Shown here piece after piece: positions 7,099 to 27,016 of a DNA stretch of 64,000 nucleotides. Positions within the stretch are counted from its first letter, which is position 1; each line of letters starts with the position of its first letter. Source of the DNA: Deltaproteobacteria bacterium. GTDB lineage: Bacteria; Myxococcota; Kuafuiibacteriia; Kuafuiibacteriales; Kuafuiibacteriaceae. The stretch covers positions 1 to 64,000 of the forward strand of contig WYAZ01000034.1 of assembly GCA_011526105.1 (NCBI GenBank), in the 5' to 3' direction. The notes below the pieces were generated by a model that was given only the letters and a program-made list of their open reading frames with translations, was not told the origin of the DNA and searched no databases. Both the position numbers and the translations under genes were made by a program.

Positions 7099-8145
7099 AT
7101 GGCGCCGAGCATGCGGCTTTGGCAGAAGTGCCGCGTGGAATACCGCCTCCTGGGCCCCACCGGGGTCCGAGTCTCGTCTCTTTGCCTCGGAACAATGTCT
7201 TTCGGCGGTGAATCCGACGAAGCGGCCTCCGGCGCCATGTTTCACCGCGCCCGGGAGCTGGGGATCAACGTTTTCGACGCCGCCGACGTGTACCAGGGCG
7301 GGGCGTCCGAGCGCATCCTCGGCCGGCTCATCGCCTCCTGCCGCGACGAGGTCGTGGTGAAGACGAAGGCCTACTTCCCGACCGGGCGCGACATCAACGC
7401 TCGCGGAAGCTCCCGCCTGCATCTGGTGCGTGCGGTCGAGGGGAGCCTCGAGCGACTGAACACCGACCGCATCGACCTCTTCTATCTGCACCGCTTCGAC
7501 GAGCTCGCCTCGATGGAAGAGACGATGCGTGCGCTCGACGATCTCGTCCGCCAGGGCAAGGTGCTCTACTTGGGCGCGAGCAACTTCGCGGCCTGGCAGT
7601 TCCAAAAGGCGCTCGGCCTCGCGGAAGCACGCCGCCTCAGCCCCTTCGTGGCGATTCAGCCCATGTACAACCTCGTGAAGCGACAGGCGGAGGTCGAGAT
7701 CCTCCCGATGGCGCTGGCCGAGAACGTCGCGGTGTTCCCGTACAGCCCGCTCGGCGGCGGTCTCCTCTCTGGAAAATACCGCCGAGATGCGCGCCCGACC
7801 GAGGGACGCCTGCAGCGGGTGAAGATGTACACCGATCGCTACGGAGCGGACGCGTACTTCGAGATCGCCGAGCGCTTCACCGCGTTGGCGGCCGAGCTCG
7901 GGCACCACCCAGCGAGCTTGGCGGTGGCCTGGGTCATCAGTCACCCCGCGGTCACCTCTGCGATCCTGGGCGCACGTGACCTCGCGCAGCTCGAGCCCTC
8001 GCTCCTCGGGGCGAAGGTCGAGATGAATGCAGAGCTGCGCGCACGCATCTCCGCGCTCTCTCCCGAGCCCGCCCCAGCGACGGATCGAAACGAGGAGCGG
8101 ACCGGGAACGACTTCGGCAAGCGCCTGCTCTCGGAGCGCAAGTAG
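7099..8145 (+). CDS. Aldo/keto reductase family oxidoreductase
   Basis: VEYRLLGPTGVRVSSLCLGTMSFGG...LGINVFDAADVYQGGASE...IDLFYLHRFD...LYLGASNF are typical AKR motifs. The track start at 7063 is TTG. ATGs lie at 7099 and 7111 and a GTG at 7135, so the start is ambiguous. Confidence 0.8.
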   Translation: MAPSMRLWQKCRVEYRLLGPTGVRVSSLCLGTMSFGGESDEAASGAMFHRARELGINVFDAADVYQGGASERILGRLIASCRDEVVVKTKAYFPTGRDINARGSSRLHLVRAVEGSLERLNTDRIDLFYLHRFDELASMEETMRALDDLVRQGKVLYLGASNFAAWQFQKALGLAEARRLSPFVAIQPMYNLVKRQAEVEILPMALAENVAVFPYSPLGGGLLSGKYRRDARPTEGRLQRVKMYTDRYGADAYFEIAERFTALAAELGHHPASLAVAWVISHPAVTSAILGARDLAQLEPSLLGAKVEMNAELRARISALSPEPAPATDRNEERTGNDFGKRLLSERK

Positions 8146-8157
8146 GCGACTCGCCGG

Positions 8158-9192
8158 CTACGCCGGCCGCATGAAGCGAGAGAGGAACTCGTTCGGCTGC
8201 AAATGCCCCCGCAAGGTGCGCAGCGTCCGTACGAAGTCGAGCGCCGAACGAAGGCCGGCGTAGGCGGTAAGACCGATCAGGAGCTGCTCGAACTGGACGG
8301 GCGTGGCGCCCGAGAGCCACAAGCCGACGGCGAGGAGCGGCGTTCCGATGATGAGCAGCGGGTCTGGCTGCGCTTTGACGGAGAGCAAGTGACCGATCAG
8401 CACACGTCCGGCCAGCGTGGGCGTGAGGAGTGCGAGGAGAAACTGCGGCGGGCGAGCGCCGATGTCTGGGATGAGCAGAAAGATGGCGCCCACAAACAAC
8501 ACCGGCGCGAAGATCAGCGCCGGCTCGAAGAGCCGCTTTCGGACCCGAAGAATCGGGCCGATGATGGTGGAGGCACACGCCGCGAACGCCGCGACGAACA
8601 GCAGATCGATCGCGGTGTAGTGCATGACCAAAGCCGTACTGCGAAGAACCTCGGGCCCCACGACCGCGCCCGCGACGTAGAACGACGCGGTGACGACGAT
8701 GCCTTCCACGTTGCCCACGCGACCCATGAAGACCTGACCGGTGACCTGCTGCTCCCAGAAGGTCATGCCGTAGGAGAGGCAGGCCACCAGCATGATGATG
8801 ACGCCGCGGTCGGAGCTCAGGCCGAAACAGATGACCGCTCCAAGGAACATGAACGTGAGGTTGAACGCGTCCAGCCAGTGATCGAGAAACTCGCCCAGCG
8901 GACTCGATGTACCGGTGCGACGCGCTTGCGCCCCATCGATGTTGTCGAAGGTGAGGTAGGCAAAGATGAGTCCGACCATGAGCGCCATGGTCAGCCGCGT
9001 GGGTTCGAGGAAGACCGCAATGAGGAACGCGCTGACCGAGCAGGTGGTCCCCATGAGGGTCAGGTCGTTCGCCGCAAAGGTCGGGGGCACGATCCCGAGA
9101 ACCGGCTGCCAGACGAATCGCTTGAGCAGCGGGACCAAGATCGAGTGGTCCTCGACGTGGTAGCGCTCAGTCACGGGGCGAGAGGATGGCAA
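8158..9192 (-). CDS. CDP-alcohol phosphatidyltransferase family membrane protein
   Basis: The signature D-G-x2-A-R-x8-G-x3-D-x3-D is present as DGAQARRTGTSSPLGEFLDHWLD. About 8 TM helices. Confidence 0.75.
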   Translation of the reverse strand: MPSSRPVTERYHVEDHSILVPLLKRFVWQPVLGIVPPTFAANDLTLMGTTCSVSAFLIAVFLEPTRLTMALMVGLIFAYLTFDNIDGAQARRTGTSSPLGEFLDHWLDAFNLTFMFLGAVICFGLSSDRGVIIMLVACLSYGMTFWEQQVTGQVFMGRVGNVEGIVVTASFYVAGAVVGPEVLRSTALVMHYTAIDLLFVAAFAACASTIIGPILRVRKRLFEPALIFAPVLFVGAIFLLIPDIGARPPQFLLALLTPTLAGRVLIGHLLSVKAQPDPLLIIGTPLLAVGLWLSGATPVQFEQLLIGLTAYAGLRSALDFVRTLRTLRGHLQPNEFLSRFMRPA

Positions 9193-9271
9193 ACTACCTT
9201 TGGGCGGCGCAAGAGCCAGACCGAAGAATGACGGTGACGCCCCGTGCGAACTCGGTTTCGCAGCCCGCGAT

Positions 9272-10084
9272 TCAGAACTTCAGGCCAGCGCCCAGAGTGA
9301 GACCCCAGGCTTCGGTGCCGCTCGCGAACGAGGGTCCGAACGGCTCGTTGAGATTGATGTTGAGCTGGGCTCGGGCGTAGGCAGGGCCGAGCTTGAGCTG
9401 CACAAACGGCCCGACCGAGAGCTGATTGCTGTTGTCTTGGGTGGGCAGCGTCACGAAGCGCAGGTAGGCGCCGAGGTCAACGATGGGCAGGGGGATGATG
9501 GCCTCCGCTCCGAGCTGCAGCGCCAGGTTGGTGTCTCCCGCGAGATCGCCGGCCGGGATCATCACCGCGATCGCGCCGTCGGCGGCGAGCATGAAGCTGT
9601 CCGAGAGCTTGAGCTCGAGTCGAGCCGGAGCGGCGACCGAGAGCGTCTGGTAGCCATAGGTCCATGGGTTCCAGTTGCCGAGGGTCTGAGCCGCGCCGCC
9701 CACTGCTGCTGCCGCCGCCCCCTCCGTCGCGCGGTAAAGGGGCGCGGCGACCCCGAGCCCCACCTTGAAGCGCATGGAAGAGACCGACCGGGTGTAGTAG
9801 CCAGCGATGAAGGGGTTCATCAGTGCCACTCCGCTGTCTGCGCTGGTCCCAGACTGGCTCAGAAAAGCGAAGCCAGCATCCGCGTGGACCGCGAAGCTGT
9901 CGGACACCGGCACGAAGACGTGAAACTGTGGTGCAACGGAGAGGAGGTCACCCGCACCCCCGACGGCGGTGCCAAAGGTCACCTGAGCCCCGATCGCTGG
10001 ATCGAAGGCGTGCGAGACGGCGGGCGCGCCGAGCGCGGCGGCGGCAACGAGGGTGGATGCGGACAACAAGATCTTTCGAGTCAC
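9272..10084 (-). CDS. Secreted outer-membrane beta-barrel-like protein (hypothetical)
   Basis: Signal peptide MTRKILLSASTLVAAAALGAPAVSHA. Alternating hydrophobic beta-pattern. C-terminal ...LGAGLKF with a terminal Phe. Confidence 0.55.
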   Translation of the reverse strand: MTRKILLSASTLVAAAALGAPAVSHAFDPAIGAQVTFGTAVGGAGDLLSVAPQFHVFVPVSDSFAVHADAGFAFLSQSGTSADSGVALMNPFIAGYYTRSVSSMRFKVGLGVAAPLYRATEGAAAAAVGGAAQTLGNWNPWTYGYQTLSVAAPARLELKLSDSFMLAADGAIAVMIPAGDLAGDTNLALQLGAEAIIPLPIVDLGAYLRFVTLPTQDNSNQLSVGPFVQLKLGPAYARAQLNINLNEPFGPSFASGTEAWGLTLGAGLKF

Positions 10085-10191
10085 GGGTTCCTCCGAGTAA
10101 GCCTTGCTTACACGGACCTAGACTCGATGTCGCGGATTCTCGTTCGCTCTTGATCGCGCTCACTCGTGCGAAAGGGACGTCGAGATGTTCT

Positions 10192-12957
10192 CTAGCGGCC
10201 TTTCTTCTTGCGTTTGGGAGAAGCCCTTTCGGGCTCGGGCGCGGGCGCAGCCTCGGGAGCGAGTTCGGGTTCCTTCTCGAGGAGGAAGGTGAGGTGTTGG
10301 TCTTTGTCGAGCACGATGCGTCGGTCCTTCGAGCGGTAGCCGGGAGCGCTCACCTCGATGTGAACACTCGAGCCAGACCTCGGGCGACGAACCGTACTCT
10401 CCACCAGATCCCCGGCGACAAAGACAACCGCGTGCGACGGCTCGACCTCGAAGCTGAGCTCGATCTGCTCCGCCTCGACCGCGGGCACCGACGGTGCGGG
10501 CACGGGCGGTTCCACCGGCGCCGCCTCGGCGGCCTCCCCCACCGGCGGCACGACCGCCTTCAGCTCAGCGGCGACGGCAGGCGCAGCGGACGGGGGCACA
10601 CTCGGCGCCGCCCCAGCCGGCCCCGAGAGCCGATTCATCAGCGCCGGTCCTTTCAGCGCCGCGAACGCGCCGACCGCCACGATGAGCGCGAACAAGAGCA
10701 GCAGCTTCGCTGCGCGTCCCGAGGTTTCACGCTCGATCATCGGAACGAGCTGGCTCGACTCCAGCGACTCGGAACCCATCAGATGAGCATCCGAACCGGA
10801 CTCGATGCGTCCGAGGGGCGCGCGAAAGACGACCGCGGTCTCGGGCTTGTCCGCCCGCGCCGGAGTGCCGGAGCGAAGCCCCGAGGGCTTCCTAGCTTCT
10901 CCCGCCGAGAGCTCGAGGCTGGGTTTCGAGATGTCCAGGAAAGGGTCGTGACCATTGAGCTGGCTCGTACTCGCCAACGCGGCGAGCGCGCGGTCGATCG
11001 GAGGTGCCGTCTCGGCGCTCACCTCGTCGAGCAGTCGAGGATCGAGTTCCAGGAGGCCGCTCGTGAGCTTCTGTCCGCGCGGAGGCTCGGGCGTGGGCAT
11101 CACCCCGGAGATCGGCGGCGGCGCGGGCGGCGCACGATGCGAGAGCGAGTCGCGAGGAGGCTGCGTCGCATCCTGAAAAGCTGGGGTCAATGGGCGGAGC
11201 GGGGTCTCCGTCCGCGGTGGCGGCTCCCCTCTAAAGGGGGTCGGGGCCCGCTGAGTGGAGGGCGGCTGCGGCGTACCCTCGAGGAACAGGTCCAACGCCG
11301 CATCGGCCGCGGCGAGAATCGGGCTGACCGCACGCGGCGCAGGTTCGGAATCACCCCGCAGCGTATCTTCCTCGGACATCACGGAAGGCGCTTTGGTCTC
11401 CCGATCCGTGGCCTCCCTACTCGTGAGCCCGAGCCGTTCGTCGTTCGTGTCGGGTGCTTCGCCGAGCGACACCTCGTCAATCGAGAGCTCTACGTCCTCG
11501 GGGCCGTTCAAAGGTGCGCGTCCTTGGTCGGTGCGATCCTCGATGGTGACGTCTTCGGGGCTCCTTCGGGCGTGACTCCTCGACTGATGATCTGTGGCCG
11601 GCTCTCCGTGGAAGGTCTTGAAGGTGCCGTCGCCTTCCGCGATCTTGATCACCGCATCGGATTGAAGAGTCAGCGGCTCCTGTGAACCGCTGACCAGCTT
11701 GGCCGACGGGTACCCTTGAGCGGTGGGGGCCTCAGCGTTCTGAGTGAGTGGCTCGGCTACGGTCTGATCTCGCAGGAAGTTCTGCGTCGTCAGAACCGCT
11801 CCCGGATTCCCATCCATTTGATCCGTCCGGTCGCGGCTCGGCGCCACCGGCACGGGCTCGCGAGGTAATGCGGCGGAGACGTTGAGACTGATGATTCCGC
11901 TGCTGTCGAGACCATCACTCGACTCGCTCTCGAGCTTTCGGAGCCCGTGGCATTCCATCTCGAGGCGCCGCTCGAGACGATCCGTGCAGAGACGATGCAC
12001 GAGATCCGAGACGTCCGTGGAGGCGATGAGCTGGCCGCTACCCGCGAGGCACATGCGCAGGGCGTCACCCAGCTCACGTGCGGTCTGATAGCGCTCGTCC
12101 GGCTCGCGACGGAGCGCCTTCATGACGACGCGCTCGAGGCTCGGCGGATAATCCGCACGGATGCCTACCGGCGGAGGAACCTGCGCCTGCCGCACTTTGG
12201 CCGCGGTAGCGAAGTCGTTGGGCGCCGCGAAGAGGCGCTTGCCGACGGTCGACTCCCAAAGGACGATACCGAGCGCGAAGATGTCGAGACGGCGGTCGAG
12301 GTTCTTGCCGAGGATCTGCTCGGGCGCCATGTACGCGACAGTTCCCTTCTGCGTACCGGTTCGAGTCTTGGGGTATTGACCTTCCGCCTTGGCCACCCCA
12401 AAGTCGAGGACACGCAAGAAGCCGTCGTAGCCCACCATCATGTTGCGCGGTGAGAGATCGCGGTGAATGACCCCCAAGAACTCGCCGTCGTCATCGCGGA
12501 GCTCATGCGCGAGATGCAGGGCATCGCAGGCCGAAGCGATGAGATGCGCCATCATCTGGTAGGGCATCCCGGGACCACCCTTCCACGCTCGATTGAGGAT
12601 GAAAGAGAGCGTCTCGCCGCGCAGATACTCCATCGCGATGTGCAGCCGTCCGTCCTCCTCGCCCACGTCGAAGACGGAGACGATGCCCGGGTGATGGATA
12701 CGGGCGGCGATGCGCGCCTCGTTGATGAACATCTGCGCGAAGGCGTCATCCGATGACAGGTGCTCGTGGATCCGCTTCACCGCAAAGAGGCGACTGAATC
12801 CACCGACCCCGACGGTCCGAGCCAGGTACACGGTGGCCATGCCCCCGCCGCCGAGCTCGCCGAGGATCTCATAAGGCCCGATCTGGTCGGGCAGGTTATG
12901 CCTACGCGGCCAACCTTCTGTTTCGCTACCGGACAAAGCCCAGCCGGAGCATAGCAA
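10192..12957 (-). CDS. Eukaryotic-like (Hanks-type) Ser/Thr protein kinase with a disordered linker, a single TM helix and a C-terminal extracytoplasmic domain
   Basis: Gly-loop LGELGGGGMATVY, AVK lysine, catalytic loop HRDLSPRN, DFG, APE (YMAPEQ). Then about 400 aa of low complexity, a TM at AAKLLLLFALIVAVGAFAAL, and a C-terminal roughly 200-aa domain. Confidence 0.85.
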   Translation of the reverse strand: MLCSGWALSGSETEGWPRRHNLPDQIGPYEILGELGGGGMATVYLARTVGVGGFSRLFAVKRIHEHLSSDDAFAQMFINEARIAARIHHPGIVSVFDVGEEDGRLHIAMEYLRGETLSFILNRAWKGGPGMPYQMMAHLIASACDALHLAHELRDDDGEFLGVIHRDLSPRNMMVGYDGFLRVLDFGVAKAEGQYPKTRTGTQKGTVAYMAPEQILGKNLDRRLDIFALGIVLWESTVGKRLFAAPNDFATAAKVRQAQVPPPVGIRADYPPSLERVVMKALRREPDERYQTARELGDALRMCLAGSGQLIASTDVSDLVHRLCTDRLERRLEMECHGLRKLESESSDGLDSSGIISLNVSAALPREPVPVAPSRDRTDQMDGNPGAVLTTQNFLRDQTVAEPLTQNAEAPTAQGYPSAKLVSGSQEPLTLQSDAVIKIAEGDGTFKTFHGEPATDHQSRSHARRSPEDVTIEDRTDQGRAPLNGPEDVELSIDEVSLGEAPDTNDERLGLTSREATDRETKAPSVMSEEDTLRGDSEPAPRAVSPILAAADAALDLFLEGTPQPPSTQRAPTPFRGEPPPRTETPLRPLTPAFQDATQPPRDSLSHRAPPAPPPISGVMPTPEPPRGQKLTSGLLELDPRLLDEVSAETAPPIDRALAALASTSQLNGHDPFLDISKPSLELSAGEARKPSGLRSGTPARADKPETAVVFRAPLGRIESGSDAHLMGSESLESSQLVPMIERETSGRAAKLLLLFALIVAVGAFAALKGPALMNRLSGPAGAAPSVPPSAAPAVAAELKAVVPPVGEAAEAAPVEPPVPAPSVPAVEAEQIELSFEVEPSHAVVFVAGDLVESTVRRPRSGSSVHIEVSAPGYRSKDRRIVLDKDQHLTFLLEKEPELAPEAAPAPEPERASPKRKKKGR

Positions 12958-16560: not shown

Positions 16561-18777
16561 ATGAACGGCCCGGTGCTCGTGATCGACGATGGCAGCGCCG
16601 TCGTGTTCGAGCTGCGTTCGGTCCTGGGCCGACTCCGGATCGAGAACGAGCGCGCGTTGTCGGGTCCGCACGCGCTCCTCTTGGCAGACCGGCTGCGCCC
16701 CAGCCTCGTGCTCACGGATGTCTTCGTACCGGGAACGAACGGGGTCGCGCTGTCCCGCGCTCTCGAGGCACGGGGCATCGAGACCGTGATCCTGAGCAGC
16801 ACCGCACCCGCCTTCTCGTCGTCGGGCGCCCCCAACGCCGCCGTCATCCTGCGGGACGATCCATGGCGCGCGCCGTTGCTCAAACACTTGTTGCCGAAGG
16901 CCGGCGTACTCTCTGAGCGCACCAAGGCCGAGCTGGCGGCGTGGAGCCGGGGCGAGCCGCTCGGCTCCAACGGTCATGGGCCGGCCGAAGAAGGCGACTT
17001 TCGACCCGCTCCGCCCGCGAGATCCGAGGGCGCTGCGGATCTCGCGTCGATCCTCACGCGCATCGATGCACTCGAGGACTGCACCGCGATCACCCATCTC
17101 TTGCTCGCTGAGCTCGAGGGCACGACCGAGGTCGAAGCGCGGCTCGCGCCGCTTCGAAGGCACCCTCGGTCACAAGTCCGGCAGGCCGCGTTTCAGGCGA
17201 GCGCAGCCCTGTGCCGAGCAGAAGACGCCGCCGAGCTCGTGGCCGCAGCCGATGAGTCCAAGGCGCTGCTCTTTGTCCTCATCGGCGCGAGCACACGCGG
17301 CCCAGAGGGCCTCCCCTTTCTCGAGCACATCGCACTTCGCACCAGCGCTCCAGCGACCTTGCGCGTGAAGGCGCTCGCCGTCCACACACGCCGATCGACC
17401 ACCTCCGGCTCGAGCACGTGGCTCGCGACGCTCGTCGCAGATCCGTCCACGGAGGTGGTCCACGCTGCCCTTCGAGCGCTCGCATCGAAGGGCGTGGACA
17501 TGCTCGTACCGCTGCTCTCGAGGGTCGACCTCGGCCCAGAGACGCGAGCCGCCGCGCTGCTCGTCCTCGGACTTCGCGCCCCGCGCTCGAGCTTCGACGA
17601 AGGCATGGCCATCGCGCTCGAAGACCCGTCCGACCTCGTGCGCGCCGCGGCCTACGAGCTGGGATTCAAGCGTCTCGGGGGACGATGTGCATCGCTGCTC
17701 GAGCGACTCGTGGCGGAGGCCTCCGAGGGTGCGGGCTTCGCGGCGCTCGCCGGCGTCTTGGATCTGGACGAGGCGGGCTTCGGAGTCCTCGAGGCGATGG
17801 AGGCTTCGCCGCTGCTGCCTGCGGTGCGACGCGAGGTCGCCCGCGCCCTCTTTGAACGTTTCGGAAGAGGCGAAGCACCGAGCGAAGACCACGAACACCT
17901 GGTCGAAGACCTCAAAGAAGAGCTGGTCGAGACGCGCCCCGAAGCCCCCGCGGACTTCGTGGGCGACGAGCGCTTGGACCACGACTTCTACTCGGGCCCA
18001 ACCGAGCCACGGCGGCCGGCGGTGAGCGAACCGGCCCCGCCGCGGCCCAAGACCCCGCCCCCACGCCCACGCTCGATCAAGAGCAAGGCGCGAGCCCCCG
18101 CCGCCGAACCGGGTCCCTCGCCGCGTGAACTGCGTGCGCGACTCGACGCCGCCGAAGCGCAGGGCCAGGCGGGTTTTGCGGTCGTGGTGGAGATCGCGAG
18201 AGAGAAGCGCGCGCCCGTCGACCTCCGGACTCGCGCGATCCGACTCCTCGGCACTTCGCTCGCCGGTCCCGAGGCCTTCGTCGTGCTCGATGCTCTGCTC
18301 CTCGACGAAGCCGCTTCGGTTCAGAACGCGGCCCTCGGCGTGTTCATGGTCGCCAAGAAGCAACACCACGAGCGCTTCATCGAGGTCGCCACGCGCGTCG
18401 AGACCTCGGCCAAGGTCCGCGCGCGTGCGGTTCGGCACCTCGGGGCCCGGTACGCACGCGAGGAGATCACCGAACCCCTCGAGCGCCTCCTCTTTGATGG
18501 CTCGACACTCGTGCGGCGCGCTGCCCTCGAAGCGTTGTTCCCGACGCTCCGTGGTCTCGACGGGGACGGACTCGAGGAGGGCCTGCTCAATCTCATGGGG
18601 CATCACGCCTCCGACCGCGTCCGCGTCTCGGCCGCGCACGCCATCGGTGCTTTTGGAAGCGAGCGATCGCTGTCGGCCATCGACAGCTTGCTCACCTCGT
18701 TGTTTCAAGCATCGGAGGTGGGCCAGGCCGCGCGCCTCGCGGTCGTGCGGCTTCGCAAGCGGCTTGCGGCCGAGTAA
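16561..18777 (+). CDS. Response-regulator receiver domain protein with a C-terminal HEAT/PBS-lyase-like repeat domain
   Basis: N-terminal REC fold (VLVIDDG...LVLTDVFVPGTNG). Repeated ...VR..A..AL... helical HEAT-like units (PSTEVVHAALRALAS, DRVRVSAAHAIGAFG). Confidence 0.7.
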   Translation: MNGPVLVIDDGSAVVFELRSVLGRLRIENERALSGPHALLLADRLRPSLVLTDVFVPGTNGVALSRALEARGIETVILSSTAPAFSSSGAPNAAVILRDDPWRAPLLKHLLPKAGVLSERTKAELAAWSRGEPLGSNGHGPAEEGDFRPAPPARSEGAADLASILTRIDALEDCTAITHLLLAELEGTTEVEARLAPLRRHPRSQVRQAAFQASAALCRAEDAAELVAAADESKALLFVLIGASTRGPEGLPFLEHIALRTSAPATLRVKALAVHTRRSTTSGSSTWLATLVADPSTEVVHAALRALASKGVDMLVPLLSRVDLGPETRAAALLVLGLRAPRSSFDEGMAIALEDPSDLVRAAAYELGFKRLGGRCASLLERLVAEASEGAGFAALAGVLDLDEAGFGVLEAMEASPLLPAVRREVARALFERFGRGEAPSEDHEHLVEDLKEELVETRPEAPADFVGDERLDHDFYSGPTEPRRPAVSEPAPPRPKTPPPRPRSIKSKARAPAAEPGPSPRELRARLDAAEAQGQAGFAVVVEIAREKRAPVDLRTRAIRLLGTSLAGPEAFVVLDALLLDEAASVQNAALGVFMVAKKQHHERFIEVATRVETSAKVRARAVRHLGARYAREEITEPLERLLFDGSTLVRRAALEALFPTLRGLDGDGLEEGLLNLMGHHASDRVRVSAAHAIGAFGSERSLSAIDSLLTSLFQASEVGQAARLAVVRLRKRLAAE

Positions 18778-18781
18778 CTGT

Positions 18782-21700
18782 TCAGCGCACGGGCGGCTTC
18801 GCGCGAGGCGAAGGCAGCGGAGGCGGCTTGCCGCCATCGATCGAGGCGAGTTTCAAAACCTCGATGAGCTCGAGCAGCGGCCGTGAGAGGCTGCGTAGGG
18901 TCTCGAGGTTATTCGACTGCGACGAGACGAGCGGGCGCAGAGTGGACTCCATGCTCGCGAGATGGCTCGCGAGCATGGCCTCGAGCTTCGGATCGGTCTT
19001 CTGCTCGACGAGGATCTCGAGCTCCGGCCTCGCGAGGCGTTTGAGCGTCGCCTCGAGGTGCTGAAGCTGCGGCAACAGGAGCGCTTCCGCTTGACCGCTC
19101 TTCTCCTGGGACCTCGCGCTCACCTCGACCGCCTGCGCGATGTGCCCACGGATGCCGTCGAGCTGGTCGGAGAGCCCAGTGAGCGTTCCAATCGCCCGCG
19201 TCATGGGGTCTTCGTCCTTGCCGCCTTGGAGCTGCACCCGCCGGAAGCTCTTGCGCATCTCTTCCCATCGAGCGACCTCGTCCGGGGTCATGCGCCCTCG
19301 AAGCTCGGAGAGCTTGAGCAAGTTCTGTTCGGCCCCGGTCGTGAGCGTCTGAGCCTCGCCCACGTAGTGATCACCGATCATCGCGAGGAGCTCGTCGTCG
19401 TTCATGGCGGAGACGACCTTCTCGGCGAGCTTGTTCATGTTGCGGTAGCTGCCTTGCAGCTTGAACGGCGGCTCGGTCCGGAAGTTGTCGTCCATGGAGG
19501 CCGACCGGATGTACTCCTTGTTCACCTTGAGCAGCACCGCCTGCACTTGGAAGAGCTTCTGGAGCACCCCGATGATCTCCTCGGACTCGACCTTGGAGTA
19601 CGAATGCTGGAAGTCGGTGGTGGGGACGTCCTCGCCCTGCGCCAGCCGGATGAAGCGGTAGACGTCCTCTTGCGAGCGCGTGGCCAGCGGCGCCAAAACC
19701 GGGTTCGAGGTGAGCGCGTTTTCTACGTAGGACAGCGCGAAGACGTCTTCCTTGCCCGCGAGGATGTCGCCGAGGTTGTAGGTATCGGCGCGGTTCGCGA
19801 GCATGTCCGGGATCTGGAACTTGTCACCGGACTCCGTGTACGGATTTCCGGCCATGACCACCGCGAACTTCTTGCCGCGAAGGTCATAGGTTCGGGTGTT
19901 GCCCTTCCACACCCCTTCGATGCGACGCTGCCCGTCGCAGAGCGAAATGAACTTCTGCAGAAGCTCGGGATGCGTGTGCTGGATGTCGTCCAGATACAGC
20001 ATCACGTTGCTGCCCATCTCGAGCGCGAGGTTGATCTTCTCGACCTCTTGGCGCGCGGTGGCGTTGGGCGCCTCGGCGGGATCGATGGACGTGACGTTGT
20101 GACCCAGCGACGGACCGTTGATCTTCATGAAGACCATCCCGAGCCGGCTCGAGATGTACTCCATCAGCGTCGTCTTGCCGTAGCCAGGCGGCGAGATCAG
20201 GAGCAACAGACCCATGAGGTCGGTGCGTTTGGCGGCGCCCACCGCCCCCACCTGCTTGGCGAGATTGTCTCCGATGATCGGCAGGTAGACCTCGTTGAGC
20301 AGTCGATTCCGGACGAACGAGGTGAGCACCCGCGGCTTGAACTCATCGAGCCTTAGCCGCTTGCGCTCCCGTTCGAGGAGCGCGTGGCGAGCCTCGCGAA
20401 ACGCCATGAACCCAGGGACCCGGGTGGTCATGAACGCGCCGAGCCGCGACAAGAACTCGTCGAGCCGGAGCCCAAGCTTCTGGGACTGAATGCGCTGGTG
20501 TTGGCCCAGCAGCCCGTCGACCGTGACCTGCGTGAGCGCCGCGACCTCCTCGCGCTCGAGTCGAGTGGTCATCACCAGCACCGCGGCCTCGCGCACGACC
20601 GGGGTGTAGCGGGCTGCCTCCTCGGGGGACTTGCTGCTCAGGAACGCGTGAACCCACGCCTCGGCCAGCTCGAAGCGCTCGCGCACTTCAGCCTCGATCG
20701 AGCGAAGGTCCTCCTCGAAGGCCTGGCGTGTGCCATCGAGCCGCATCTGATCAAACAAGTGGTCGCGGAGCTCGACCGCCTCGCGGCTCGTGGTGAAACG
20801 GGGGTGGGGGTTCGCGAGCTCCTCGAAGAGATACCGACCCGCGACCTGCAAGTCGTGTTCGGGTGCATCGATCTCGTGCTCGGTCAGAAAGGTCGAGATC
20901 GCCACCGAGAGCTCGCGGGCAAAGCTGTCCACCGCGTCAGATCGCGAAAAGGCCGTGCGCAGACGGCCAAGGCTCTGAGCCCGGCGGTGCCACTTCGCGC
21001 GTTCCGCCTCGACGTTGAAGTTCGCCCAGAACAAGCACGCGAGCGCTCGGGCGTTCGGAGCGTAGCGGAGGAGACCGGCGGTCTCGCGCATGGCCACGAG
21101 CTTCTGCAGAAGCAGCGTCGCGTCGGCATCATGGAGACCACGCTCGTAGCCCTCCTCGTAGCGGGTGTTCGCGTACGCGCGTACGATCTCGAGCAGGTCC
21201 TTCTCGTCCACCGCCGCCCGATGGAGCTGAGCGAGGTCGAGCCCGTTTAGGCTTCTCTCGGCGTCAAAGAGGATGCTCGCCGCCAAGAACTCGCCGCGGT
21301 AGACGCTCGGATCTTCCGAGACGAGCTGCTGGTCCCAGTACGCCTTGGTCTCGAGGAACGCGGGGTCAGTGATGGGCTCGTAGAAGTCCGTCCCGGTGAG
21401 GTGCAGCGCCATGCCACCGTCGCGCGGAACGATGGTGAGCTCGAAGTTCTGCGTGTTGACCGAGAACTTGTGTTTGCCGAGCTTGATGACGTTGTCGCCG
21501 CCCTCGAAGAGCTCGACCTTGTCTCGCAGGTTACGGAGCGCGTTCTGGCGACCGCTCTTGAGCTTCGCCTCGAACTCGTCCGCCTTGACCTCGTCGCCCA
21601 CCGCACGCAGATCTTCGACGAGCTGACGCAGCTTCATGATCATCGCGTCGGAGGCGAAGTACGCGTTTAGCTCGTCTTCGAGCTTGAAGCTCTTGGTGCG

Positions 21701-24085
21701 TCGGTCCACACCTTCGAGGATGCGCTCGGCGGCCTTGGCCAGGTTTTGCGCGCGGCGCTGACGCTCGTCGAGCAGCTGCTGCTTCTTGGCGCCAAAGGCC
21801 TCGTAGACCTCTTCGCGCTTCGCGGAGAGCTGGGCCAAGAAGTCGTCGAACTCGGAGAACCGGCTCTCGAGTTCCTCGAGCTGGACCAGGAGGCGAGAGA
21901 GCCCCTCTTCGCACTTCTCGGCGGTGTCGGACATCGACAAGCCGCTCGAGACCGCCTGACCAAAGAGCTTGAACTGCGCGCCGAACTCGGCGCGGCCCTC
22001 GGTGCCGAGCAGCTCTTTGCGATGCGCCTGGAGCGTGGCGCGGACGCGGTTGAGCTGTCCAAAGACCTCCGAGATGCCTTCGAGGATCTGCGTGCGCTGC
22101 GTGATGTCGTCGATCTGCAGGCCGCTCACCACCTCGGAGAGCAGATTGAGGCCTTCGGACAAGGCTTCGATCTCGGCCGCGACCGGCTGGATCTCATGAG
22201 CCTTGTGGATGCTCGCGATCTGCTTGTGAGTCTCCTCGATCCGCCCGACCAGAGGCGAGAGTGAATCCTCGGACAGCAGGAAGCGCACACAGGCGTCGCT
22301 GACCTCCTCGAAGCGCGCCTTCACGCTCTCTTCGAGGGCATCCACCGCCGCGAGATCGATGTACCGAAGCTCGCGCAGCGTGATGAGGTGCCCGCGTTGC
22401 CCGCGCAGCGCGGACAGCGCCTTCAGGTACTCCTCGACCCGCCCTAGAGCGTCCGGGCGCAGGTCCACGAACATCTTGTCCTGGACGTCCTTGGCTTCCG
22501 CCAGAGCTTCATCCGCGCGACGTTTGATCGCCTGCACCTTCTCGAACTCATCGACCACGCCTTCCGCGTTCTTCTTGATGTCGTCGAGCGTGGCCCTGAG
22601 GTTCTCGGTCTCGCCTTTGTCGAGCCAGAAGTAGGTGTCGATCACGCGGTTTACGTGCGCGATGAGGTCTTCGTAGAGCTGCCTGGTGGGGCGTGGGTTC
22701 TCGATCAGCTTCTTGATGCTGTACGCATCCGAGATGCCACGCACGAGCTCGGCGTTGCCGATGTTTGTGAGGAAGGAGTCTTCTTTGGGCGCCTTCGCCG
22801 CGAACTCCTCCGAGCAGAAGGGCGTCTGCCAGATCTGCATGGGGTGGACGCGCACCGGCTCCTCGCTGACGGAGCGAAACACTACGAGGCTCCCGTCCTC
22901 GAACAGCGTGTATCCGTGGCACTGGATCGGGTTCTGCACCTCCTTGCGGATCAGGTTGTAGGGCAGAAGCAAGATCCGGCCGCTCTCTCGGTGGAGAAAG
23001 ACATAGAGCACGTCCTCTCCGTTGGGGGAGCGCACGACGCGCAAGAACTCGAGATCGGTGATGGCCTCGTCGAAGACCTTGGTGTCCCCGGTCTGAAGGT
23101 AGTAGCCGCCGGGGAAGACGATGCCGTGGTTCTCGGGGAGCTGCAGGCACGCGAGGCCGAGGGCGTCGATGCGTTTGACCGTCTTGGTGCGTGTATTGAA
23201 GACGAGATACCGAAAGGCCTCTTCCTTGTACGGGAGCACCTTCAAGAGAATCAGTCCGCCGAGCTTGGCGTAGTGGATCTCGGCGTCATCGAGCGCCTGC
23301 CGCGGCTCTTGAACCGGCTCGGCGTAGATGCCTTTGCCATCATTGGTGTTGTCTTCGATCTTGATGGTGAGATCGCCGCCCACCGTCTCCACAAACACCT
23401 CGTTCAAGATGTTCACGTGCGGATGACGCCCATGCACATGGCTGTCTCGGTCCGTGGCGGTCCACTCGAAGTCGTGGGAGGGTGGAAAGGCGTTGTCCTC
23501 ATCCCCGCGGTTGTCGATGTACGTGACCTTCCCGCGTGGATCGAGCGCCCAGCGGAACACCTTGACGTCATGGATGTTCTGGCCGACCTGAAAGACCGCG
23601 AGCAGCTTGCCTTCGGACCGGATGCGAAGCTGCAGGAGCTTAGCGTCCTTGTAGTACTGGTAGAGCTCCTGGAACTCTTTGACGAAGGTGGGATCTTGGA
23701 GAAAACCGCCGCCCTCACTCAGGGCCAAGTTACCTAGGTCGAAGCCGCCGGCCTCGTTGCGCTCGAAGCGGTGGAGCGCAAACACGTCGCCGACCTTGGT
23801 GGTGGTCCGAAGCCCCAGGTGCACGTTGTACCCAAAGAGCAGTACCCCTCCCACGCTGACGATGTCCCGGGGGATGCAGTTGTTCTCGGTGCGCACGCGC
23901 TCGTTGCCGATGACGTTGAGCTCGGTGCCTCCGAACTTCTGCTTGCGCTTGTCGTTGAGTCGATCGGTGCGCGCCCCCAGGGCCTTCGCGGCCTCGAGCA
24001 GGCGAGCACGGATGACCTCGTAGCTCCCGGTCTCGAGGGCGGCCGCATCGGCCCCCGCTTGTGGTGTCTCGGCTCCGCTCGACAT
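18782..24085 (-). CDS. Giant (about 1767 aa) AAA+ ATPase. It has a beta-rich N-terminal domain, about 800 aa of helical/coiled-coil region, an AAA_5/MoxR-McrB-like P-loop core and a helical Pro-rich C-terminus. It is co-operonic with flotillin
   Basis: Walker A LLLISPPGYGKTTLMEY (residues about 1296-1312; nt about 20160-20205). Walker B VMLYLDDIQ. Sensor region VVMAGNPY. The track start at 24091 is GTG. The ATG at 24083-24085 is preceded by GGAG at an 8-nt spacing. The gene starts 37-43 nt downstream of the flotillin stop. Confidence 0.8.
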   Translation of the reverse strand: MSSGAETPQAGADAAALETGSYEVIRARLLEAAKALGARTDRLNDKRKQKFGGTELNVIGNERVRTENNCIPRDIVSVGGVLLFGYNVHLGLRTTTKVGDVFALHRFERNEAGGFDLGNLALSEGGGFLQDPTFVKEFQELYQYYKDAKLLQLRIRSEGKLLAVFQVGQNIHDVKVFRWALDPRGKVTYIDNRGDEDNAFPPSHDFEWTATDRDSHVHGRHPHVNILNEVFVETVGGDLTIKIEDNTNDGKGIYAEPVQEPRQALDDAEIHYAKLGGLILLKVLPYKEEAFRYLVFNTRTKTVKRIDALGLACLQLPENHGIVFPGGYYLQTGDTKVFDEAITDLEFLRVVRSPNGEDVLYVFLHRESGRILLLPYNLIRKEVQNPIQCHGYTLFEDGSLVVFRSVSEEPVRVHPMQIWQTPFCSEEFAAKAPKEDSFLTNIGNAELVRGISDAYSIKKLIENPRPTRQLYEDLIAHVNRVIDTYFWLDKGETENLRATLDDIKKNAEGVVDEFEKVQAIKRRADEALAEAKDVQDKMFVDLRPDALGRVEEYLKALSALRGQRGHLITLRELRYIDLAAVDALEESVKARFEEVSDACVRFLLSEDSLSPLVGRIEETHKQIASIHKAHEIQPVAAEIEALSEGLNLLSEVVSGLQIDDITQRTQILEGISEVFGQLNRVRATLQAHRKELLGTEGRAEFGAQFKLFGQAVSSGLSMSDTAEKCEEGLSRLLVQLEELESRFSEFDDFLAQLSAKREEVYEAFGAKKQQLLDERQRRAQNLAKAAERILEGVDRRTKSFKLEDELNAYFASDAMIMKLRQLVEDLRAVGDEVKADEFEAKLKSGRQNALRNLRDKVELFEGGDNVIKLGKHKFSVNTQNFELTIVPRDGGMALHLTGTDFYEPITDPAFLETKAYWDQQLVSEDPSVYRGEFLAASILFDAERSLNGLDLAQLHRAAVDEKDLLEIVRAYANTRYEEGYERGLHDADATLLLQKLVAMRETAGLLRYAPNARALACLFWANFNVEAERAKWHRRAQSLGRLRTAFSRSDAVDSFARELSVAISTFLTEHEIDAPEHDLQVAGRYLFEELANPHPRFTTSREAVELRDHLFDQMRLDGTRQAFEEDLRSIEAEVRERFELAEAWVHAFLSSKSPEEAARYTPVVREAAVLVMTTRLEREEVAALTQVTVDGLLGQHQRIQSQKLGLRLDEFLSRLGAFMTTRVPGFMAFREARHALLERERKRLRLDEFKPRVLTSFVRNRLLNEVYLPIIGDNLAKQVGAVGAAKRTDLMGLLLLISPPGYGKTTLMEYISSRLGMVFMKINGPSLGHNVTSIDPAEAPNATARQEVEKINLALEMGSNVMLYLDDIQHTHPELLQKFISLCDGQRRIEGVWKGNTRTYDLRGKKFAVVMAGNPYTESGDKFQIPDMLANRADTYNLGDILAGKEDVFALSYVENALTSNPVLAPLATRSQEDVYRFIRLAQGEDVPTTDFQHSYSKVESEEIIGVLQKLFQVQAVLLKVNKEYIRSASMDDNFRTEPPFKLQGSYRNMNKLAEKVVSAMNDDELLAMIGDHYVGEAQTLTTGAEQNLLKLSELRGRMTPDEVARWEEMRKSFRRVQLQGGKDEDPMTRAIGTLTGLSDQLDGIRGHIAQAVEVSARSQEKSGQAEALLLPQLQHLEATLKRLARPELEILVEQKTDPKLEAMLASHLASMESTLRPLVSSQSNNLETLRSLSRPLLELIEVLKLASIDGGKPPPLPSPRAKPPVR

Positions 24086-24128
24086 CGTCACTGCTCCGGA
24101 CCAGACCTAGAGGCCCAAGAGAACGTCT

Positions 24129-26177
24129 CTAGTTCTTCTTCGACTTCGCCTGTGGGAGATCGTCGATGCCCAACTCGCGCGCTTGATCGATCAGCGTCTG
24201 GATCTTCTGCCGGATGGGGTCATCCGCCCCGACCATGAGCTTTCCGAGCAAGGCGGAAAGCGACAGGCTCTGAAGCGTGCCGGCGTCGAGCGCGGGCCGA
24301 GACAAGACGTCCTTCAGGTCTTGCGGGAAGCTGCTCTTCCCGCTCGTGTAGTCCTTGAAGATGGTGTCGAGCGTGTTGCTGTGGTCGAGCGCCCCATCGA
24401 CCGACTGCCCGAGCGACACCGCCTTGATGAAGCGATCGAAGAACTGGCCGTCGCCACCCACGATGTTGATCTTGGCGTGGCTGAAGGCCTCCTTCATGAT
24501 CTCCGCCTGGTTCTTCGCGATCTCGGTTCGAGCCTCGATCGAGCGGAGCTCGACGTCCTTCTCCTTCTCGAGGTTGATGCGGAACTCCTCGTGCTCCCTG
24601 CCCACGCCGTCGAGCGCCTTCATCGCGTCTGCCTTCTGCGCAAGGCCCGTGGCCTCGGCCGCGAGCCGTTTCTCGATGGCGACGGCGTCCGCCAGGCCCT
24701 TCTCGCGCAGCACGCTGGCCTGAGCCAGACCCTGCTGCTCGGTGACCTTCGCCTCCGCCATGCCCGTCTTCTCGATGGCGACCGCGTCGGCTTCTCGGAC
24801 GCGGACCTTGGCCAGGCCCGAGGCGGCCTCTTCGGCCTGCACCCCTTCGGCCAGCCGGATCTTCGCCTTGGCGCGCTTGTCCGAGGCCTCGAGGTCGGCC
24901 TCGGCCAAGGTGAGGGTCTCTTTGGCCTTAAACTTGGCGACCTCGCTTTGGGCCTCGGCGCTCTTGATCGTCTTGACCAAGCTCTCCTGCGCTTCCGCCT
25001 CGGCGCCGATGATCATCGCCTCCTTGGTGCGCTTGGCCTCCGCGACCACCCGCAGGTCTTTGATGCGCTCTTCTTCCTCGGCCACGGTCTTGTCGACGGC
25101 GATGCGCGCCCGAATGACGTCGGCGATCTCCTTCTTCTCGACCTCGACTTCTTTCTCCTTGGCGATGGTGTTGAGCGCGACCTCTCGCTCGCGGGCGATG
25201 ACCTCGATTTGGCGGTCCTTCTCGACCCGCTCGGTCTCGACCGCGATCACGCGTTCGCGGTTCTTCTGGGCGACCTGCACCTGCCGCTGCCGGTTCTCTT
25301 CGTTGATCTCGACCTCTTCCTTGGCCTTGATCCGAGCGAGCTCGGCCTTCTTGAACTCCTCCGCCTGAACACGCTTGGTCTCAGCCTCTTCGCGCGCCTT
25401 CATGGTGTTGATCTCGCGCTGCTGCTTGGCGACGGCGTCGGCCTGCTGGCGGTCGAGAGCCAGAACCGCCTCTTCGGCCTCGACGTTCTGCTTCTTCATC
25501 GCCTTGCGCTCGGTCTGGCGCAGATCGTTGGTCATGACGTTCTGCACCGTGGTGAGCTCGGTAATCTTTCGGATACCCTGGGCGTCCAAGATGTTGTTCG
25601 GATCCATCGCCTCGAGCGGGGTCTGCTCGAGGAAGTCGATGGCCGCGTCCTCGAGCGCGTAGCCGTTGAGATCTCGACCGATGACTTCGATGATGGAGTC
25701 TTTGAAGCTGTCGCGTTCCTTGTAGAGGTCCTCGAACTCGAGTCGCTTACCAACGGTCTTCAGGGCTTCGGAGAACTTCGCCTGAAAGAGATCCTCGAGT
25801 GTGCCCTGCTGCGAGGCTCGGGCGCAGCCGATGGCCTGCGCCACCTTGAGCACGTCGTCGACGGTCTTGTTCACGCGAACGAAGAAGGTGACCTTGATGT
25901 CGGCGCGGATGTTGTCCGAGCAGATGAGGCCGTCTTTGCCGCGGCGATCGATCTCGATGGTCTTGACCGAGATGTCCATGACCTCGGCCCGATGCAAGAT
26001 CGGATAGACCAGGCCGCCGGTGAAGGTGACCTCGGGCTCGCCGCGAACCTTGTTGATGATGAGGGCGTTGCCCTGATCCACCTTCCGGTATCCGTGGAAG
26101 ACCAGGTAGCCGAACCCCAGCATGATGATCGCGACACCCGCGATCGTGAACCCCATGAGAATCCAGGTCTGAAACAT
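24129..26177 (-). CDS. Flotillin / SPFH (band-7) family protein, YqiK/FloT-like
   Basis: N-terminal TM, then the SPFH domain, then a very long Ala/Glu/Lys-rich coiled coil (EAEEA/KAKE repeats) and a C-terminal flotillin tail. A GAGAGG Shine-Dalgarno lies 6 nt upstream of the ATG at 26177. Confidence 0.9.
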   Translation of the reverse strand: MFQTWILMGFTIAGVAIIMLGFGYLVFHGYRKVDQGNALIINKVRGEPEVTFTGGLVYPILHRAEVMDISVKTIEIDRRGKDGLICSDNIRADIKVTFFVRVNKTVDDVLKVAQAIGCARASQQGTLEDLFQAKFSEALKTVGKRLEFEDLYKERDSFKDSIIEVIGRDLNGYALEDAAIDFLEQTPLEAMDPNNILDAQGIRKITELTTVQNVMTNDLRQTERKAMKKQNVEAEEAVLALDRQQADAVAKQQREINTMKAREEAETKRVQAEEFKKAELARIKAKEEVEINEENRQRQVQVAQKNRERVIAVETERVEKDRQIEVIAREREVALNTIAKEKEVEVEKKEIADVIRARIAVDKTVAEEEERIKDLRVVAEAKRTKEAMIIGAEAEAQESLVKTIKSAEAQSEVAKFKAKETLTLAEADLEASDKRAKAKIRLAEGVQAEEAASGLAKVRVREADAVAIEKTGMAEAKVTEQQGLAQASVLREKGLADAVAIEKRLAAEATGLAQKADAMKALDGVGREHEEFRINLEKEKDVELRSIEARTEIAKNQAEIMKEAFSHAKINIVGGDGQFFDRFIKAVSLGQSVDGALDHSNTLDTIFKDYTSGKSSFPQDLKDVLSRPALDAGTLQSLSLSALLGKLMVGADDPIRQKIQTLIDQARELGIDDLPQAKSKKN

Positions 26178-26290
26178 CGTTTGCCTCTCTAAATCGGGTC
26201 CTACCGAGCCGCAAGGCCCGGCCAGAAACCGCCGCAGAGCCGCCCTTTCGAGGCGAGCTCAGTTCGTATAGGACCGGCCTGAGCCGGGTC

Positions 26291-27016
26291 TCACTGCGAT
26301 TCGCGCTGCGCAGCCCGAGCCGCGCTCGAGCTCGCTTTGCTGGCCTCCGGTTGCTCGGGCTGAACCGGCTCGACGAGGAAGACCTGCTTCTCCGGATCGT
26401 AGTTCACGATCAGAGCTTCGGTGCCCTTCCTGAGATCGTTGGTCTGTGAGCAGCGGATCTGGATGAGGAGCCCTGCCCCACCGTCGATCACCGTGGCTTG
26501 CCCGAAGCTCTCCGTCACCTTGCCGGTGGTGACCTCGCAGACCTCGCCCACGAAGTGCTTCAATCGTCCGCCCTGATGCGTGCGAAAGAGCGGACCGAGC
26601 GGCCAGACCAAGATCGAAGTGATGGGCACCGCAGCGACCAGCGACACCACGAACACGAGCGCCCCGATGATCGCGTTCGGCAAGAACGGAAGATGCGGTG
26701 CGACGTGCACCATGCCTAGAAAAGAAAGTACCCATGATGACAAGACGGTGAGACTCAGGACCACGGTGACGGGCGCGTTTCGGAGTTTCAGCGCGTGGAC
26801 CAAGCCGGCGAGTCCAAGACCCGCCTCCGCCGCCCCTTCTGCCGCCGCTTCTGCCGCCCCCTCCGCGAGACCTTCAGCCGCACCTTCCGCAGCGTCGAGG
26901 ATCTCGACGTCGAGGACACCCAGGATCACGAAGCCCCAGTAGAGCATCACGAGCCCGAGCAGCGTGGTGAAGATGACCGTGGGGAAGGCGACGATCTGCG
27001 CTAGAAACTCACTCAT
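26291..27016 (-). CDS. NfeD-like / YqiJ-family inner-membrane protein (partner of flotillin)
   Basis: TM helices, an acidic (AEGAA)n linker, and a C-terminal OB-fold-like beta-domain (GEVCEVTTGKVTESFGQATVIDGGAGLLIQIRC...ALIVNYDPEKQVFLVEP). Position upstream of flotillin as in yqiJ-yqiK. Confidence 0.65.
   Translation of the reverse strand: MSEFLAQIVAFPTVIFTTLLGLVMLYWGFVILGVLDVEILDAAEGAAEGLAEGAAEAAAEGAAEAGLGLAGLVHALKLRNAPVTVVLSLTVLSSWVLSFLGMVHVAPHLPFLPNAIIGALVFVVSLVAAVPITSILVWPLGPLFRTHQGGRLKHFVGEVCEVTTGKVTESFGQATVIDGGAGLLIQIRCSQTNDLRKGTEALIVNYDPEKQVFLVEPVQPEQPEASKASSSAARAAQRESQ

Follow-up and report, generated by a model that had tools for sequence, protein, structure and literature searches.

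A YqiJ/YuaF-like, flotillin-like and giant AAA+ ATPase operon in a Myxococcota contig, with a possible role in membrane stress

Operons joining a CesT/Tir-PspA gene pair to three further genes have been described by Ravi et al. (mSystems 2024, preprint 2020; PMC11237479). The three genes include one for a three-transmembrane YqiJ/YuaF protein, a PLD hydrolase is added in some Proteobacteria, and an "abbreviated" three-gene form is also covered. For Dokdonia donghaensis, the supplementary table of that paper gives a YqiJ-YuaF protein, a protein with Band-7, coiled-coil and flotillin regions, and a protein with beta-propeller, coiled-coil and AAA-ATPase regions, and the authors suggest that the system acts like a chaperone when membrane-linked complexes are put together. 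We analyzed a stretch of 64,000 nucleotides (hereafter the window; positions 1 to 64,000, forward strand, of contig WYAZ01000034.1, assembly GCA_011526105.1) from a Deltaproteobacteria bacterium assigned to the Myxococcota, in which three adjacent genes at 18782-27016 encode an NfeD-like membrane protein, a flotillin-like protein and a giant AAA+ protein. These fit the operon of Ravi et al. in architectures and gene order (example: the ANH61663.1 neighborhood), as matched by description. An earlier reading made from the letters of the window only (the sequence-only reading) had put the locus forward as an undescribed system. This did not hold, as the operon is already known computationally, its three-gene form included, and the window provides a further member. 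The window carries only the abbreviated form, without the CesT/Tir-PspA dyad of the full form, and the published description is without structure, motif analysis or experiment. Added here are domain models of the giant protein (a propeller, a spectrin-like rod and the AAA+ module), an invariant D-D Walker B, a count of the gene linkage (71 of 74 loci) and the finding that the three proteins co-evolve. We give an even chance to our preferred reading, in which the three genes form a module for envelope (membrane) stress, whose ATPase would dock on the flotillin/NfeD scaffold and use ATP to remodel the scaffold, PspA polymers or both.

The first two genes can be compared with the pairs YqiJ-YqiK of E. 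coli, YuaF-FloT of B. subtilis and NfeD-FloA of S. aureus. In all of them the NfeD-type gene comes first and the flotillin gene second, the proteins share their membrane topology, and an extended Glu/Ala-rich helical region comes after the SPFH or SPFH-like domain. The window differs in that these two proteins score below every Pfam and NCBIfam threshold, and in that a third gene, for the giant ATPase, belongs to the unit. Its flotillin-like protein is also longer (682 amino acids) and apparently has an extra conserved C-terminal domain. Neither Hinderhofer et al. 2009 nor a 2026 paper on a P. aeruginosa SPFH protein mentions an ATPase partner, and literature searches on DUF3686, PF12458, flotillin with DNA repair ATPase, and SPFH with MoxR found nothing relevant. 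A second comparison is with HflK/C-FtsH (and prohibitin/m-AAA), where an SPFH scaffold is likewise coupled, genetically and functionally, to an inner-membrane AAA+ ATPase. FtsH, however, is a membrane-embedded member of the classic AAA clade with a protease domain of its own, and its cage is periplasmic, whereas the giant ATPase is soluble, has no protease and adds a propeller and a spectrin-like rod, and its scaffold is expected to face the cytoplasm.

The three co-oriented open reading frames in the window all lie on the minus strand. The first, at 26291-27016, encodes the YqiJ/YuaF (short NfeD)-like membrane protein of 241 amino acids, assigned from the reading frame, hydropathy, the orthologue profile and gene position. 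It is followed by a spacer of 113 nucleotides (26178-26290), by the gene for the flotillin-like SPFH scaffold protein of 682 amino acids (24129-26177; assigned from the reading frame, orthologue Pfam matches, hydropathy and RefSeq names), by a second spacer of 43 nucleotides (24086-24128), and by the gene for the giant soluble AAA+ protein of 1767 amino acids (18782-24085), in which Pfam places DUF3686, DUF7902 and AAA. The second spacer carries the sequence GGAG, 8 nucleotides 5' of the ATG of the giant gene. With an alternative GTG start, the giant gene would occupy 18782-24091 and the gap to the flotillin-like gene would be 37 instead of 43 nucleotides. The ATG at 24085 is the most likely start, because independent gene calls on two metagenome contigs with the identical protein use the same one. 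Residues of the giant protein are counted from this ATG; the Pfam run used the GTG start, and its numbers are 2 higher. The gene layout given in the sequence-only reading, including both gaps and the GGAG before the ATG, was confirmed. The 113-nucleotide spacer is G+C-rich, in a window of ~65% G+C, and has several predicted hairpins. Its RNA fold was no better than those of shuffled sequences (z = -1.28), and a scan for promoter and terminator consensus sequences gave no match in it. Scanning the window for tRNA genes and Rfam families gave no hits. Exact matches to the window came from metagenome assemblies only.

The arrangement is kept well beyond this genome. Counting only loci with enough upstream DNA (80 metagenome loci were retrieved), a flotillin-like gene lies directly upstream of the giant gene on the same strand in 17/17 genome or plasmid loci and 54/57 metagenome loci, or 71/74 together, and for this reason the linkage is far beyond chance. 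The NfeD-like gene precedes the flotillin-like gene in 16/16 genome or plasmid loci and 46/50 metagenome loci (62/66). In a collection with one genome per species, 15 loci were found, and the triad stood in the same order at every locus with room for it; these loci came from Myxococcota, Planctomycetota, Bacteroidota, Acidobacteriota and, among the Gammaproteobacteria, Oceanimonas, Oceanisphaera and Methylococcaceae. Annotated records gave the same arrangement on pQBR103 of P. fluorescens SBW25, on a Streptomyces plasmid and on a Deinococcus plasmid. Only 13 plasmid records had a homologue of the giant protein, mostly megaplasmids or mis-filed chromosomes. Experimentally tractable carriers of the operon are SBW25 with this plasmid, Streptomyces, Myxococcus, Sorangium, Proteus mirabilis and the Vibrio campbellii group. 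The order NfeD-like, flotillin-like, giant ATPase spans at least 7 phyla. The tight linkage that the sequence-only reading had noted in this one genome is therefore general, and neither a restriction of the gene neighborhood to this genome nor an established function for the giant protein, either of which would have spoken against that reading, was found. The distance matrices of the three proteins are correlated (r 0.80-0.85, Mantel p <= 0.001, 65 loci), and the three genes are therefore passed on as one unit, by descent and by transfer alike.

The giant protein belongs to the Pfam family DUF3686 (PF12458), with a full-length profile match in its N-terminal part (446/448 profile positions, E 4e-208), DUF7902 (E 2e-27) and a C-terminal AAA domain. 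The domain set DUF3686/DUF7902/AAA is common to all 240 homologues listed. At least 6,564 homologues were obtained at E <= 1e-10, and the DUF3686 domain by itself gave 775 clusters at 50% identity, 267 of them at E <= 1e-30. Full-length family members are uniformly 1600-1900 amino acids long, and the closest named relatives of the window's protein are in the Myxococcota. Hydropathy showed no hydrophobic segment, and searches of PDB sequences, whether started from the protein itself or from a profile of 41 sequences, gave nothing beyond the Walker A region, where there is weak similarity to RuvB. The protein is thus soluble and matches no characterized enzyme, as the sequence-only reading had it.

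Two AlphaFold2 models together cover residues 1-1660. In model 1 (residues 1-860, pLDDT 91.3), a long helix (21-51) precedes a beta domain (57-420) with ~26 strands, and further long helices make up the rest. The beta domain (22826-23917, minus strand), which is the core of DUF3686, matched Rod/RZZ, Ski8, clathrin heavy chain, IFT-A and prolyl oligopeptidase in Foldseek (E 7e-7 to 1e-4), all of them beta-propellers or propeller-plus-solenoid proteins. Residues 426-860 (21506-22810), which include DUF7902, form a spectrin-repeat-like helical rod in the model. The fold search proposed in the sequence-only reading for the beta domain and the ATPase core was therefore productive for both, with propeller and AAA+ matches. 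Its description of the N-terminal part as beta-rich and coiled-coil was right as to the beta domain and the long helical middle, while "coiled coil" is better replaced by spectrin-repeat-like helical bundles. Model 2 (residues 861-1660, pLDDT 87.1) begins with a small beta unit, which is followed by a helical domain, another beta unit and then the AAA+ module. The first three make up the middle region (residues 861-1250; 20336-21505; delimited from model 2 and conservation), in which the small beta unit spans 866-905, the helical domain carries a conserved RYxEGYERGxHDxD, and a long helix leads from the second beta unit into the ATPase. The AAA+ module follows (residues 1251-1600; 19286-20335; delimited from conservation, Foldseek and Pfam). 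The protein ends in a helical, Pro-rich tail (residues 1601-1767; 18782-19285 with the stop codon), and its last ~130-170 residues are poorly conserved (0.08-0.34).

The family carries the NCBI name "DNA repair ATPase", and the Pfam description of DUF3686 reads "ATPase involved in DNA repair". A role as a DNA repair ATPase would be consistent with these names, with the similarity to RuvB around Walker A, with the presence of RuvB among the fold matches and with a 5'-3' exonuclease gene two genes away in the window. We judge this role very improbable: neither Pfam nor the fold searches detected a DNA-binding, nuclease or helicase domain in the giant protein, its conserved partners at 71/74 loci are membrane proteins, the exonuclease gene lies on the opposite strand and was not found at the other annotated loci, and no paper was found that ties DUF3686 or PF12458 to DNA repair. 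The product name, carried by the named members among the homologues, is without support.

The AAA+ module is the best conserved part of the giant protein (0.77-0.82 per 50 amino acids). The motifs that the sequence-only reading had picked out, GYGKTT, LYLDD and MAGNPY, are all there, and the homologues show little or no variation in them. Walker A, PPGYGKTT (GYGKTT at 1301-1306, with K1304), is invariant both in 41 and in 95 aligned homologues. Walker B, LYLDD (1363-1367), has its first Asp (D1366), and the next position, which normally holds the catalytic Glu in AAA+ proteins, is an invariant Asp (D1367). The motif set also includes AGNPY (N1414) within MAGNPY at 1411-1416, ANRAD (R1432) and GSYRN (R1548). 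These three residues are invariant among homologues, and from their expected positions we infer that they are sensor 1, the arginine finger and sensor 2. In Foldseek the module matched ClpB, RuvB, ClpA/C and MCM with probability 1.0 (E 6e-6 to 4e-4), with the alpha/beta core and helical lid of the AAA+ fold. In AAA+ proteins that thread their substrates, pore loop 1 sits between strand beta-2 and helix alpha-2. As read from the sequence, this loop of the family has the consensus NGPSLGHxVxSLDPxEAPNATARQE and no aromatic residue.

The sequence-only reading had also likened the core to the AAA_5/MoxR/McrB/dynein-type group. The AAA+ fold stood, and Pfam gives a weak AAA_5 match above its cut-off (28.4 bits; cut-off 22). 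The generic AAA match, also weak and also above its cut-off, scores much the same (27 bits). Two further features recall MoxR/AAA_5 proteins: a hairpin (1388-1401 in model 2) precedes the sensor-1 strand, and the stretch AGNPYTESGxxFxIPDMLANRAD resembles their NP...G...DRF. Membership was nevertheless rejected, as the fold matches (ClpB, RuvB, ClpA/C, MCM) are not MoxR proteins, the helix-2 insertion is not evident in the model and the operon has no VWA partner gene. The name "MoxR-like" is thus without support for the giant protein.

Both partners of the giant protein are membrane-anchored. The flotillin-like protein has one hydrophobic segment as an N-terminal anchor (residues 1-30), an SPFH-like region (~35-200) and a long helical region (~200-560), of which residues 201-560 are 60% E/K/R/A/Q and 2.8% P+G. 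It thus shows the anchor and EA-rich helix of flotillins, and an NfeD/YqiJ/YuaF-type gene lies directly upstream of its gene, following the rule of Hinderhofer et al. 2009. Its orthologues are named "flotillin family protein" or "SPFH domain-containing protein" in RefSeq, and Pfam found Band_7 in 4/17 of them (best E 9e-11) and Flot in 2/17. A conserved, non-coiled C-terminal domain (~560-682; 24129-24500, minus strand) with the motif HAKINIVGG...FFD is present in the window's protein and also in the orthologues. This domain is a candidate docking site for the ATPase. In the 241-residue protein, three hydrophobic segments are followed by an acidic linker rich in Ala and Glu and by a beta region at the C terminus, and among 11 of its orthologues Pfam found YqiJ_N in 2 (E 0.003) and NfeD in 1 (E 0.008).

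Further genes recur around the triad at some loci. In 16/57 loci with enough upstream DNA, a PspA_IM30 gene lies directly 5' of the NfeD-like gene, mostly with a CesT_Tir_1 or DUF2170 (YjfI-type) gene ahead of it; examples are L009 (4309-5007), L011 (3179-4297), L013 (3716-4836) and L017 (2454-3609), with 12 further loci, L numbers being our locus labels. Immediately downstream of the giant ATPase, PLD-like (PLDc_2) genes were found in 5/80 loci and TelA in 7/80, and TerB-domain genes recurred. Loci with genes of these three kinds are L014 (12866-13576), L016 (12884-14666), L011 (13031-13426), L046, L047, L075, L078-L080, L082 and L089. These downstream neighbors occur in some Gammaproteobacteria and Bacteroidota, and a TerD gene is near the Streptomyces copy (L019). 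The full form, with CesT/Tir-PspA upstream and PLD downstream, was recovered among related loci, Flavobacteriales included. On pQBR103 (L018; record positions 85112-97641) the triad comes directly after a yjf-type cluster of PspA, rhomboid, DUF2491, DUF350, DUF1190 and glutathionylspermidine-synthase-like genes.

Such neighbors also bear on the suggestion that the operon is an anti-phage or conflict system, in which the membrane scaffold and the NTPase would sense infection and trigger abortive infection at the membrane. TerB, TelA, TerD and PLD genes are discussed as stress or conflict genes, and PspA was first found as a phage-induced protein; the distribution of the operon is also patchy over phyla, at 43-65% identity, and includes megaplasmids. 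Even so, PADLOC matched none of the three proteins beyond a marginal coiled-coil match to LmuB (E 8e-4), and none of 50,697 phage records held a homologue. The flanks in the window and at the annotated loci are housekeeping or metabolic genes and not defense islands, no nuclease, toxin or sensor domain was detected, and the uniform length and architecture lack the domain shuffling typical of conflict systems. We therefore regard such a role as improbable, and the defense or secretion function that the sequence-only reading had offered among its examples gained no support from PADLOC or the phage records.

What is established is a set of co-inherited, membrane-anchored partners and a soluble AAA+ protein with intact nucleotide-binding motifs. 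In the envelope-stress module that we propose, the NfeD-like and flotillin-like proteins would assemble at the inner membrane, on its cytoplasmic side, into an oligomeric scaffold of the SPFH type. The giant protein would dock on it through its propeller and rod, possibly at the C-terminal domain of the flotillin-like protein, and would oligomerize through the AAA+ module. ATP binding and slow hydrolysis, as the D-D in place of D-E in Walker B may indicate, would then remodel, disassemble or reposition scaffold polymers. The flotillin assembly would be one target and PspA (ESCRT-III-type) polymers, wherever they occur, another, with no threading of clients; in the genome of the window, PspA would come from elsewhere. 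The conserved linkage and the modeled architecture are in keeping with this reading, and so is the topology, since the giant protein has no transmembrane segment and both partners are anchored in the membrane, and so is the membrane-stress context of PspA/CesT_Tir upstream and PLD, TelA or TerB downstream at some loci. SPFH proteins build cage-like oligomers with NfeD partners, as in QmcA-YbbJ, and in B. subtilis the SPFH protein YdjI localizes PspA.

The same scaffold could instead capture damaged or unfolded membrane proteins, which an AAA+ hexamer would extract, unfold or disaggregate, much as in HflK/C-FtsH, prohibitin/m-AAA protease and erlin/p97 but minus a built-in protease. We hold such client processing to be possible but rather unlikely. 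In fold, the ATPase module comes closest to disaggregases and unfoldases, namely ClpB, ClpA and ClpC (E 6e-6 to 4e-4), SPFH proteins repeatedly partner with AAA proteases, with HflK/C-FtsH as precedent, and a propeller is typical as a substrate or adaptor platform. In S. aureus, FloA-NfeD confines and stabilizes unfolded proteins (PMC11222466). Remodeling of the scaffold is preferred over threading because the pore-loop-1 position, as judged from the sequence, has no aromatic-hydrophobic motif, because Walker B is D-D and only one AAA+ ring would form, and because there is no conserved protease partner (no protease or co-chaperone gene was found in the operon in the window or at the annotated loci) and the recurrent partners PspA, PLD and TelA are polymer-forming or membrane-active and not proteostasis genes.

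Several results weigh against the stress-module reading. ClpB, ClpA and ClpC, the closest folds, are threading machines. The identities of the two partners are weak by the window's own proteins: neither had a Pfam match even at E 10, the flotillin-like protein reached only 22.9 bits (E 4e-5) against the NCBIfam FloT model with its cut-off of 700, the profile of its orthologues matched only QmcA, at E 0.006 and within the helical part, and in the NfeD-like profile residues 147-205 aligned, in the place expected, to residues 14-72 of the YuaF C-terminal domain (2k14) at a weak E of 0.08. The "well-known" NfeD/flotillin pair of the sequence-only reading was thus supported by orthologues, architecture and position but not by Pfam matches of the window's proteins, and on the former grounds the SPFH and NfeD identities are plausible. 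A correlation of r ~0.8 would be expected of any co-inherited genes. At three metagenome loci (L023, L036 and L054) a full-length giant ATPase lacks both partner genes, flotillin-like and NfeD-like, over the surrounding 7-10 kb, and the ATPase can therefore be encoded apart from its partners. In L036 (ATPase at 7433-12670) a divergent Ser/Thr kinase gene precedes it. The partners of these three ATPases may be encoded elsewhere in their genomes. PspA adjoins the triad in only about a quarter of loci, and the 64-kb window itself yielded no homologue of PspA, CesT/Tir, PLD or TelA (by tblastn for PspA and CesT), nor any other of the recurrent neighbors. The literature search found no experimental study of the giant ATPase.

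On the 5' side, the neighbor of the operon in the window is a divergently oriented deaminase gene. On the other side, a gene for a 738-residue protein with weak Response_reg and HEAT-repeat matches (16561-18777, plus strand) is convergent with the giant gene, their stop codons 4 nucleotides apart, and the 5'-3' exonuclease gene comes after it, two genes from the giant gene and on the opposite strand to it. Neither the 738-residue reading frame nor the exonuclease gene is kept beside the operon at other loci. Elsewhere in the window, the segment 44001-46000 has a local G+C of 0.57, compared with ~0.65 in the rest, and reading frames on the plus strand lie at 44102-45157 and 45666-47600. This segment could be a recent acquisition.

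The adjacency of the ATPase gene to PspA, a member of the ESCRT-III superfamily, in about a quarter of the loci recalls Vps4/ESCRT-III of archaea and eukaryotes and suggests, by analogy, ATP-driven remodeling of a polymer. The giant protein has no kinship with Vps4 in sequence or architecture, no MIT domain and no second region of homology of the classic clade, and it is ~4x larger; the likeness would be one of function and not of membership. Somewhat speculatively, and with a low probability in our estimate, the giant protein may be an ATP-driven remodeler of membrane scaffolds, acting on PspA polymers as a functional Vps4 analogue, opening flotillin cages, or both. The ATPase, flotillin and NfeD proteins would then make up a hitherto unrecognized machine of a bacterial sub-membrane skeleton, with a front end of propeller and helical rod that resembles eukaryotic coat and membrane-skeleton proteins. 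This would be of high interest if true. According to a 2025 review, bacteria seem to lack a Vps4-like ATPase. Bacterial flotillin and NfeD proteins are widespread and their mechanism is debated, and the disassembly of PspA/ESCRT-III in bacteria is also a puzzle. The operon offers a genetic and biochemical handle on both, because a dedicated, highly conserved ATPase is coupled to a flotillin scaffold in at least 7 phyla and adjoins PspA in a quarter of the loci, and pQBR103, a well-studied megaplasmid, provides a ready experimental system.

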